Shown piece after piece: positions 9,739-10,416 of a stretch of 11,621 bases of DNA; within the stretch, counting starts at the first letter, position 1; each line of letters starts with the position of its first letter. The stretch is taken from the IMG/VR virus record IMGVR_UViG_3300031772_008824. One strand, given 5' to 3'. The position numbers were made by a program, and so were the translations under genes. Below the pieces are notes generated by a model. The model saw nothing but the letters and a program-made list of their open reading frames with translations. It made no database searches and was not told the DNA's origin. The DNA is from a virus.

Positions 9739-10416
9739 CTATTCGGCCTCGCGGTCGAGAATTCCCAGCTCGACGGCTACCCGTCGGACCATTTGGAAGT
9801 CCCTGATCACCTTCGCCTCGGATTCCTTCTTGCCCTGAGCTGTTGCCTGCCGAGCTGGCTCGAACGGGTGTGTCGTGTAGACCACCGGGTACCCCAAGAA
9901 CTTCCCTCGAGAGCCGGAGATGACACCCATCTTGATCTGTGGGTCGTTGGAGAAGAACTTCGCCGCCACGAGCCCCATGGATACTATCAGCTTGGGCTTC
10001 ACGAGGTCCAGGGCTTCCCGAACCCGAACTCCACATCGTTCGGTGAAGTCTTTGCGGATGGAGATCTTCTCCTTGCTAGCGGCCGCTTCCTTGGGGCCCT
10101 TCTTGGCCTGTACTTCTCCCACCTTGGGTTTGGCGATCGGCGTGCAGGCCAGGATGTTGGTGAAGAAGCACTTGTCGTAGTGGATCTGGGCGACCTTGGC
10201 AATGGCCCAATGTACCCATTGCCCGCCGGCGCCTTGCATGGGTTGGCCGATCTTGTCCTCGTCTTTGCCTGGGTACTGTCCTACGACGAAGACTTCCGCT
10301 CCCGGCATGTCTCCGTGAGCTACCTTGCCCATACCCAACACGGACTTGGTCCTGTTGAAGCAGAGCTCACACCGGTTACAGAGGGACCACTTCGCGTAGT
10401 GCTGAGCCCAGGTCAT
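9739..10416 (-). CDS. Divergent family-4-type uracil-DNA glycosylase superfamily protein (225 aa) with a non-canonical GQYPG motif A
   Basis: CNRCELC Cys pair; FVVGQYPGKDEDKIGQPMQGAGGQ (nt ~10267-10290) aligns to GE[G/A]PGxxEDxxGxPFVGxAG, but the Glu is replaced by Gln and PFVG by PMQG. ACTP and ERCG supply the remaining cluster Cys. The C-terminal THPFEP stands in place of HPS. The ATG at 10416 overlaps the RpoB-like stop (ATGA). An AGGAGG SD sits 5 nt upstream. Confidence 0.8.
   Translation of the reverse strand: MTWAQHYAKWSLCNRCELCFNRTKSVLGMGKVAHGDMPGAEVFVVGQYPGKDEDKIGQPMQGAGGQWVHWAIAKVAQIHYDKCFFTNILACTPIAKPKVGEVQAKKGPKEAAASKEKISIRKDFTERCGVRVREALDLVKPKLIVSMGLVAAKFFSNDPQIKMGVISGSRGKFLGYPVVYTTHPFEPARQATAQGKKESEAKVIRDFQMVRRVAVELGILDREAE

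Follow-up and report, generated by a model that had tools for sequence, protein, structure and literature searches.

The viral DNA analysed here, the 11,621-nucleotide IMG/VR record IMGVR_UViG_3300031772_008824 (hereafter the window), carries two genes for proteins of the uracil-DNA glycosylase (UDG) superfamily, UDG1 and UDG2, and the best explanation of UDG2 is that it would be a neo-functionalised offshoot of the family-4 uracil-DNA glycosylases. Judged from alignments, UDG2 is a member of a separate, conserved branch with a correlated residue signature, which we refer to as GQ-type and which, as far as our searches show, is previously undescribed. We tentatively favour a reading in which UDG2 would flip out and recognise bases, cleaving slowly, in a single turnover or not at all, and would act together with the canonical UDG1.

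Both genes of the preliminary description, at 6224-7045 and 9739-10416, were recovered as minus-strand open reading frames (ORFs), and both products matched Pfam PF03167 (E 1e-32 for UDG1; E 8e-13, 49 bits against a gathering cutoff of 24.3, for UDG2). UDG1 was indeed canonical, with the motifs GEAPG, PFVG, CRPPNNR and HPS, and scored 162.2 bits against the family-4 model NCBIfam TIGR00758, above its 125.3-bit cutoff. By contrast, UDG2 scored 63.2 bits, below that cutoff. The two proteins were 30% identical over 210 residues, and UDG1 is presumed to be the partner or paralog of UDG2.

6224-7045, minus strand: UDG1, 273 aa, canonical family-4 UDG with an approximately 80-aa N-terminal extension (ORF, Pfam, TIGR00758 and PDB match; E 8e-39 to Thermotoga TM0511).
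9739-10416, minus strand: UDG2, 225 aa, putative GQ-type family-4-like UDG-fold Fe-S protein (ORF, Pfam, PDB alignment, AlphaFold2 and Foldseek, orthologues).

A phmmer search of the PDB aligned UDG2 with Thermus thermophilus (Tth) UDGa, structure 1UI0 (E 1.2e-13), so that VVGQYPGKDEDKIGQPMQGAGG of UDG2 was paired with IVGEGPGEEEDKTGRPFVGKAG of Tth UDGa, FTNILACTP stood opposite ITNIVKCRP, and THPF opposite FHPA. The aligned motifs (UDG2/Tth UDGa) were GQYPG/GEGPG, PMQG/PFVG, TNILAC/TNIVKC and HPF/HPA, which bore out the earlier account of GQYPG, PMQG and HPF in a protein that keeps its Fe-S cysteines. Counted along this alignment, Gln47 of UDG2 corresponds to Tth Glu41, Tyr48 to Gly42, Glu53 to Glu47, Asp54 to Asp48, Met60 to Phe54, Gln61 to Val55, Asn87 to Asn80, Ala90 to Lys83, Cys91 to Cys84, His183 to His155 and Arg189 to Arg161. 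The Cys ligands Cys13, Cys16, Cys91 and Cys128 were all present and aligned with the Tth Fe-S ligands. HMMER and Foldseek both placed GQYPG in motif A, and a misalignment of this element was rejected. The AlphaFold2 model of UDG2 (pLDDT 79.7, pTM 0.79) matched many UDG structures with a Foldseek probability of 1.00; the best matches were family-4 UDGs and UdgX (E about 1e-14; 7e-15 for family 4), and the match to the family-5 structure 2D3Y was much weaker (E 1.2e-6). The features assigned within the gene were as follows.

10369-10380, minus strand: CNRC, Fe-S ligands Cys13 and Cys16, with Trp10 before them (alignment).
10267-10281, minus strand: motif A, GQYPG, with Gln47 for Glu41 and Tyr48 for Gly42/Ala (alignments).
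10231-10242, minus strand: PMQG for PFVG, with Met60 for the uracil-stacking Phe54 and Gln61 for Val55 (alignments).
10144-10164, minus strand: FTNILAC, with Asn87 (uracil N3/O4 recognition) kept, Ala90 for the Asn-supporting Lys83, and Cys91 as Fe-S ligand 3; no CRPPxNR Asn motif follows (alignments; Lys role from PMC10776899).
10036-10104, minus strand: 23-residue Lys/Glu-rich insertion, K105-R127, specific to the window virus and protein P0001 (alignment).
10033-10035, minus strand: Cys128, Fe-S ligand 4 (alignments).
9847-9870, minus strand: motif B, HPFEPARQ, with His183 (leaving-group His155) and Arg189 (Arg161) kept (alignments).
9742-9771, minus strand: conserved C-terminal tail ELGILDREAE (alignments).

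In the model, residues 92-123 had a pLDDT below 50 and the insertion was disordered. Low-complexity insertions rich in Lys, Glu and Gln occur both here (10036-10104) and in the RNA polymerase beta-like protein of the same virus (contig L001:8136-10004, about residues 340-450), and are missing from the orthologues in related viruses. The C-terminus is conserved as L-[LI]-[ED]-R-x-x-E in the core clade and its nearest relatives, with Glu always the last residue in the core clade, and this tail may be a docking tail for a partner.

UDG2 has the four Cys ligands, the uracil-recognising Asn and the motif-B His (His183, the equivalent of His155) of family 4. It lacks the GE[AG]PG motif A, the stacking Phe of PF[VI]G and the motif-3 CRPPxNR Asn, that region reading CTPIAKPK; in its counterpart of the TN[IV]VKC element Asn87 is kept and the supporting Lys is Ala. 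UDG2 departs from family 4 in motif A, in the Phe that stacks on uracil, in the Lys that supports the Asn, in motif 3 and in its score against the curated cutoff; we therefore regard it as a derived sister group and do not file it as a family-4 UDG. The three substitutions first described were correct, although the signature proved wider: Lys83 has become Ala and Val55 has become Gln, the motif-3 Asn is gone, and an aromatic residue stands where family 1 has its catalytic Asp.

A word-indexed search identified nine relatives of UDG2 that were 44-92% identical to it. The resulting ten-sequence alignment (A1) had 43 invariant columns, the pocket included, among them G46, P49, E53, D54, P59, M60, Q61, G62, N87, C91, C128, H183, P184, F185, E186, P187, R189 and Q190, with Q47 nearly so. 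Ten contigs in the collection encode exactly the UDG2 protein. The gene was intact and nucleotide-identical in the six independent metagenomic contigs that were read, and a comparison of synonymous changes across these identical copies was uninformative. In the core clade the replaced pocket residues were near-invariant (Q47, Y/F48, M60, Q61, and in motif B Phe185 in 10/12 and Glu186 in 12/12 sequences), which indicates remodelling rather than decay; in one of the 12 sequences, P0014, Asn replaces the His.

When 1.84 billion representatives were searched exhaustively with a profile, 14 proteins matched at E <=1e-30, followed by a continuum into ordinary family-4 enzymes. The best 150 matches, aligned to the profile, contained 165 domains, 125 of them GE-type and 37 GQ-type. 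As defined here, a GQ-type domain has W-x-x-C-x-x-C, G-Q-[YWF]-P-G and Asn-x-x-[GA]-Cys, no CRPPxNR, and a virus-like gene context; UDG2 has all of these features. The two groups compared as follows.

Tth position 41: Glu in 125/125 GE-type domains; Gln in 33, Lys in 2, Pro in 1 and Arg in 1 of the 37 GQ-type domains.
Tth position 42: Ala in 91 and Gly in 25 of 125 GE-type; Tyr in 13, Trp in 11, Phe in 4, Ser in 3 and His in 2 of 37 GQ-type.
Tth position 54: Phe in 124/125 GE-type; Met in 16, Phe in 16 and Val in 4 of 37 GQ-type.
Tth position 55: Val in 111/125 GE-type; Gln in 21/37 GQ-type.
Tth position 83: Lys in 113/125 GE-type; Gly in 17 and Ala in 12 (29/37) GQ-type.
Motif 3, C-x-P-x(1-3)-N: 111/125 GE-type; 6/39 of the domains whose residue at position 41 is not Glu.
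Three residues before Cys1: mostly Val or Ile in GE-type; Trp in 31/31 GQ-type domains covering the position.
Asn80 and Glu47: essentially all GE-type; 37/37 GQ-type.
Cys3 and Cys4: essentially all GE-type; 37/37 GQ-type.
Cys1 and Cys2: 125 GE-type; 31/31 GQ-type domains covering them.
His155: 120/125 GE-type; 28/37 GQ-type (among the others Asn in 3, Phe in 2, Met in 1 and gaps in 2).

A neighbour-joining tree, which is distance-based and was built on the profile-fitted alignment, separated the GQ- and GE-type domains, with the N-terminal domains of the fusion proteins described below on the GQ side, with a bootstrap of 52/60; the core UDG2 clade had 48/60.

Members of the GQ-type branch turned up solely on virus-like contigs from metagenomes. 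All GQ-type matches of a second profile search came from Logan, JGI or ENA assemblies, and the NCBI-named matches were all GE-type. A scan of 185,579 GTDB species-representative genomes with the pattern GQ[YW]PG[KEA][DE]ED identified no relative, IMG/VR pattern scans with UDG2-clade and beta-subunit patterns also gave no relatives, and a metagenome scan added only two further loci. A close relative in sequenced phages was rejected as well, as tblastn of the GenBank phages produced distant matches only (24-31% identity), and the two that were inspected (Moorella phage MTATph1 and LR756511) are canonical GE[GA]PG UDGs. Megablast of the window against the GenBank phages gave no nucleotide match, and a search of the paper library did not turn up the GQ-type motif strings in connection with UDGs. 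The element appears to be a prokaryotic virus whose lineage is uncatalogued.

Published mutagenesis indicates what the substitutions might mean for activity. In Tth UDGa the losses in k2/Km were 888-fold for E41Q, 89-fold for G42D, about 100-fold for E47A, 17-fold for F54A, >40-fold for N80A, 7-fold for N89A and >1000-fold for H155S, and the E41Q-G42D double mutant recovered to 5-fold below wild type (PMC5387724). In the mechanism proposed for that enzyme, His155 stabilises the leaving group, the motif-3 Asn89 positions the water and the Glu41 main chain contacts uracil O2 (PMC5387724). The earlier statement that motif A supplies the water-activating residue holds for families 1-3 and is not established in family 4, given these roles of His155 and Asn89. 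In UdgX, E52A was about 100-fold down, F65A, N91A, K94A and H178A had no detectable activity, and Lys94, the equivalent of Tth Lys83, holds the recognising Asn in place (PMC10776899).

By alignment, UDG2 keeps Asn87, His183, the Glu53/Asp54 pair and Arg189, changes Glu41, Phe54 and Lys83, and has lost the Asn89 motif. Its aromatic residue Tyr48 is at the position of the family-1 catalytic Asp, where families 2 and 3 place Asn (the motifs being GQDPY in family 1 and GINPG and GMNPG in families 2/3). Since Phe or Trp stands there in relatives, Tyr48 is not expected to be a nucleophile. Fast canonical uracil excision by UDG2 appears unlikely, unless correlated changes compensate, because four residues that are experimentally important in family 4 or UdgX have been replaced.

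Viruses related to that of the window were recognised by common beta', beta, helicase and HIRAN-like proteins, and in six lineages (the window virus, L007, L018, L019, L020 and L021) a GQ-type gene lies 0-2.2 kb downstream of the RNA polymerase beta'-beta genes on the same strand. In the window, the TGA stop of the beta-like gene overlaps the UDG2 ATG (ATGA), and a Shine-Dalgarno sequence, AGGAGGA, precedes UDG2 at 10421-10427.

10413-11621, minus strand, window: 3' part of a divergent RNA polymerase beta-like gene, 622 aa in L001 (ORF, profile matches).
L019: beta'-beta, an overlapping GQ-type gene, four genes, then a canonical UDG with a UDG1-like N-terminal extension (GEGPG/PFVG/HPA; TIGR00758 152 bits).
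L018: the beta C-terminus, then the GQ-type gene, then a homologue of the 131-aa protein of the window.
L007 and L020: two small genes separate beta from the GQ-type gene.
L021: four genes separate beta from the GQ-type gene; a glycosyltransferase (GT4)-DNA polymerase (PolA) gene pair lies two genes downstream.
L016: the GQ-type gene comes immediately after a HIRAN-like gene, and polymerase genes are absent; an intein-bearing thymidylate-synthase-like gene and a radical SAM gene lie upstream.

GQ-type and canonical UDG genes were thus close together in two lineages, the window virus and L019 (where the canonical enzyme is the UDG1 orthologue), and the UDG2-type proteins of these lineages, which retain both paralogs, were only 33% identical. 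In addition, four two-domain proteins of 416-429 aa (P0018, P0020, P0027 and P0029, the last at L015:8001-9251) consist of a GQ-type N-terminal domain and a canonical GE-type C-terminal domain. Their N-terminal domains have W-x-x-C-x-x-C and G[QR][YS]PT, keep the Asn and lack the motif-B His. L015 belongs to a distantly related virus, and its fusion gene adjoins those for ThyX and for a YfbR-like nucleotidase. That the two-UDG layout is kept in another lineage, together with the gene fusion, suggests that the GQ-type and canonical domains work on the same process. UDG2 was rightly described as atypical in its motifs; it is not a one-off degenerate copy, however, but a member of a conserved, virus-restricted subfamily that is recurrently paired or fused with a canonical UDG.

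Based on these observations, our favoured though tentative reading of UDG2 as a recognition protein can be put in mechanistic terms. UDG2 retains the [4Fe-4S] scaffold, Arg189 as the counterpart of Tth Arg161, and both base-reading residues: on a uracil-type pyrimidine Asn87 would recognise N3/O4 and His183 would recognise O2. A uracil-like base would be flipped out of the DNA into this pocket. The residues of a fast hydrolase (the carboxylate of Glu41, Phe54 for stacking, Lys83 for orienting the Asn and Asn89 for positioning the water) would have been replaced as a correlated, conserved set, and an aromatic side chain would now stand where family-1 enzymes hold the catalytic Asp. Such a drier, remodelled active site may bind its target base tightly and cleave it slowly, in a single turnover in the manner of MUG or UdgX, or not at all. 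UDG2 would then be the recognition partner of UDG1 within a viral replication and transcription gene block, and in one related lineage the variant and the canonical UDG appear fused in a single protein. We favour this reading because the binding residues are kept more strongly across the GQ-type domains than the catalytic His (37/37 versus 28/37), because both water-related elements are lost, and because a canonical UDG is repeatedly paired or fused with the GQ-type domain.

Several points weigh against it. The effects of single mutants need not add, and the Tth E41Q-G42D pair is an example of activity restored by correlated changes. Although canonical motif-A residues are absent from families 5 and 6 and from Brig1, all of these are active, which favours UDG2 being active on something, and a protein that only binds would hardly seem to require the invariance of His183, Glu53 and Asp54 seen in alignment A1. 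In the AlphaFold2 model of a fusion protein both domains fold (pTM 0.51), with a disordered linker at 211-232 and no confident mutual orientation; a fixed, heterodimer-like interface between the two UDGs is accordingly not supported. Furthermore, no canonical UDG was visible in the 16-20 kb around the GQ-type genes of L007 and L021, so the partner is not proven to be universal. An inactive binder and a recogniser of a different base, the two options raised in the preliminary description, both remain the leading hypotheses on the sequence evidence.

The second of these, that UDG2 is an efficient monofunctional glycosylase with a changed substrate, UDG1 handling plain uracil, is nearly as probable as the recognition reading. 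The substrate might be a 5-substituted uracil such as 5-hydroxymethyluracil (hmU) or 5-formyluracil (fU), or else thymine or uracil where the context is special; if the virus's own DNA is modified, it might be a canonical base. A new, strictly conserved pocket set alongside unchanged Asn87, His183, Glu53 and Asp54 is typical of a change in specificity; the pocket shows remodelling and not degradation, and UDG families that diverged have usually turned out to be active on something. The UDGA and UDGB paralogs of Thermus are a precedent. Another is Brig1, in which a family-4-like fold excises alpha-glucosyl-hmC (PMC11078745). Related contigs carry genes for thymidylate-synthase-like, ThyX and dCMP deaminase proteins, and the GT4 gene that overlaps the start of PolA in L011 and L021 is a weak hint of DNA glycosylation. 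However, the glycosyltransferase matches only generic GT4 families, and no hydroxymethylase, DNA kinase or other dedicated base-modification gene was found in the readable 30 kb of the window virus. A roomier C5 pocket is also at odds with Glu53, which is invariant and corresponds in space to Tyr66, the C5-excluding residue of E. coli UNG (PMC5387724), and the His is lost in 9/37 GQ-type domains. It is rather unlikely that UDG2 is an ordinary second uracil-DNA glycosylase with mutually compensating residues, either redundant with UDG1 or dividing labour with it (single- versus double-stranded DNA, early versus late expression). Gln at the Glu41 position is compatible with high activity if its neighbour co-varies, as in Tth E41Q-G42D (PMC5387724) and in GQDPY of family 1; Asn87, His183 and Arg189 are intact, and the GQ-type protein is perhaps the sole UDG in L007 and L021. 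Set against this, four experimentally important positions have changed together, the neighbouring residue is aromatic and not acidic, the TIGR00758 score is 63 bits against a cutoff of 125.3, and the fact that lineages with such divergent UDG2-type proteins have stably kept both paralogs argues against redundancy.

The adjacency to the polymerase genes raises the further possibility, to which we give little credence, that UDG2 serves the viral multisubunit RNA polymerase as an accessory without catalytic activity, acting as a base-flipping reader of uracil or of a modified base in promoter or template DNA or coupling the sensing of lesions to transcription. There is precedent in phage AR9, whose RNA polymerase reads template-strand uracils via a dedicated subunit. 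UDG2 directly follows the beta-like gene, with the ATGA overlap and a strong Shine-Dalgarno sequence, the downstream position recurs in six lineages, and the acidic C-terminal tail is conserved. The contigs are, however, all from related viruses, and the synteny is possibly inherited gene order; the GQ-type gene of L016 follows a HIRAN-like gene with no polymerase genes between, and the fusion partner is a UDG rather than a polymerase subunit. We hold it similarly doubtful that the GQ-type fold is a non-hydrolytic reader that holds a flipped uracil or modified pyrimidine for the RNA polymerase (for instance to recognise promoter or template where the genome has non-canonical bases, or to sense lesions during transcription), or a dehydrated site that passes the sugar to a non-water nucleophile (base exchange, cross-linking). 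That UDG2 is a decaying or functionless duplicate is highly improbable: canonical motif residues are lost, but the ORF is intact, the orthologues at 44-92% identity share 43 invariant columns that include the pocket, and exactly the same protein occurs on ten contigs, with a nucleotide-identical gene in six.

Comparison with the known families places these alternatives in context. UDG2 resembles family 4 (1UI0, TM0511 and Sulfolobus tokodaii 4ZBX) in its fold, four-Cys Fe-S site, G-x-x-P-G loop, Glu-Asp pair, uracil-recognising Asn, and motif-B His and Arg. It differs in Glu41 to Gln, Gly/Ala42 to Tyr, Phe54 to Met, Val55 to Gln and Lys83 to Ala, and also in the absence of the CRPPxNR Asn, its HPFEP loop, the Trp before Cys1 and its separate branch. 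The second-best structural match, UdgX of Mycobacterium smegmatis, is a family-4 derivative in which excision has been diverted from plain hydrolysis to tight covalent binding, and is a functional analogy for a binder. UdgX keeps Glu52, Phe65 and Lys94 and has an extended loop with His109 (motif A GEQPG), whereas UDG2 has none of these; its only insertion is a Lys-rich loop without His (none in residues 92-127) that is absent from other clade members. An assignment of UDG2 as UdgX was rejected on the missing His-bearing loop and on a TIGR03914 score of 57.6 against a cutoff of 189.95.

Family 5 is likewise a paralog of a family-4 enzyme with an Fe-S cluster and no polar catalytic motif-A residue (Thermus UDGb, 2D3Y). 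UDGb has GLAPG and relies on the motif-3 Asn120 (PMC5387724). UDG2 was rejected as a family-5 enzyme on its GQYPG motif A, its lack of a motif-3 Asn and the Foldseek values (E 1.2e-6 versus 7e-15 for family 4). The GQDPY motif of family-1 UNG has Gln at the second motif-A position, as in UDG2; family 1, however, has a catalytic Asp after the Gln and no Fe-S cluster, whereas UDG2 has a Tyr (Trp or Phe in relatives) that would be unable to activate water. Phage family-4 UDG modules tied to replication are known from the PolA proteins of N4-like and SP-15-like/phiLo phages. The catalytic residues of the N4-like domain are unconserved and a role as a processivity module has been proposed (PMC10201439), and the SP-15-like/phiLo domain is active, that of the SP-15-like phages reading dU ahead of the fork (bioRxiv 10.1101/2025.03.26.645540). 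UDG2 differs in being free-standing and not fused to PolA, and keeps a His-bearing motif that the N4-like domains lack; its similarity to phiLo PolA was weak (E 4.5e-4 by sequence, Foldseek E 1.2e-5). Brig1 is a further case of a family-4-like fold retargeted to a modified base (PMC11078745). The GQ-type differs from the PolA modules, Brig1, UdgX and family 5: it is free-standing, it occurs in a pair with a canonical UDG, and its defined, correlated signature puts an aromatic residue in the catalytic-water position.

Three genes separate UDG2 from UDG1 (7672-9701, minus strand) and are partly conserved in the same order in related viruses, homologues recurring downstream of the GQ-type UDG in L007, L018 and L019. 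Their products had no Pfam or PHROG match.

9306-9701, minus strand: 131-aa Cys-rich protein (ORF), with a homologue after the GQ-type gene in L018.
8679-9302, minus strand: 207-aa protein (ORF).
7672-8631, minus strand: 319-aa protein (ORF).

All substantial ORFs of the window are on the minus strand. Long plus-strand ORFs (up to 875 aa) run antisense to real genes, for example at 3517-6144 and 9700-10632; these show no sign of being genes and are by-products of the approximately 60% G+C. A sigma-70 promoter scan of 6000-11621 identified no promoter-like sites, and terminator-like sites on the non-coding strand only. At least six contigs carry the identical UDG2 gene, the longest, k141_1360666 of ENA ERZ27247880, being 74.8 kb, and the genes around it encode two SF2 helicases, an RNase H, the RNA polymerase beta'-like and beta-like proteins, a DUF932-like protein, a major vault protein (MVP) homologue, a small radical SAM/SPASM protein, and a GT4 glycosyltransferase whose gene overlaps the start of that for a family-A DNA polymerase. 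The beta'-like (526 aa, L001:6416-7996) and beta-like (622 aa, L001:8136-10004) proteins are small and extremely divergent, and the latter had no tblastn match in 50,697 GenBank phage records.

The overlap of the GT4 gene with the start of the DNA polymerase gene was seen at L011:16554-17714/17711-19768 and at L021:9474-10586/10579-12663, in viruses whose beta-like proteins share only 38% identity. This pair could point to DNA glycosylation, but the glycosyltransferase matches only generic GT4 families; beyond it, no DNA hypermodification genes were identified in the readable 30 kb of the window virus. In L016, the intein-bearing thymidylate-synthase-like gene (L016:1252-3300; best match the methanogen-type TIGR03283) stands next to a 361-aa radical SAM gene and the GQ-type UDG, a hint that some viruses of this group have an archaeal host or nucleotide metabolism of an archaeal type. 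The window also encodes a small radical SAM protein (2059-2742, minus strand; 227 aa as listed), whose best matches were SPASM-type maturases and viperin-like enzymes. UdgX-like domains in bacteria are accompanied by another radical SAM family, the TIGR03916 "DNA modification/repair radical SAM" system, to which the window protein is unrelated; a link to that system is not supported, as the radical SAM proteins of the window and of L016 resemble SPASM-type maturases.

At 3649-6201, minus strand, the window encodes an 850-aa homologue of the eukaryotic major vault protein that is conserved in L007 (Pfam MVP shoulder E 3e-27, a Vault_3 repeat, and rat/human MVP in the PDB at E 4.5e-18 over residues 491-792). 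One earlier report describes MVPs in phages (bioRxiv 10.1101/2023.11.10.566534). TROVE/Ro60-vWA proteins are also encoded by the relatives L018 and L019.

The UDG superfamily is a textbook case of one fold retuned to different lesions, and its branches UdgX and Brig1 each revealed new chemistry or biology. In the GQ-type branch, the residues that published mutagenesis found important to family-4 catalysis appear to have changed together while the base-reading residues were kept. The branch is also distinctive in its restriction to an uncatalogued virus group, its repeated pairing or fusion with a canonical UDG and its place after viral RNA polymerase genes. If UDG2 is a reader or slow-turnover partner of UDG1, the two would make up a natural "sensor plus eraser" pair acting on uracil in the viral DNA; a new substrate for UDG2 would instead indicate base modification in these viruses.

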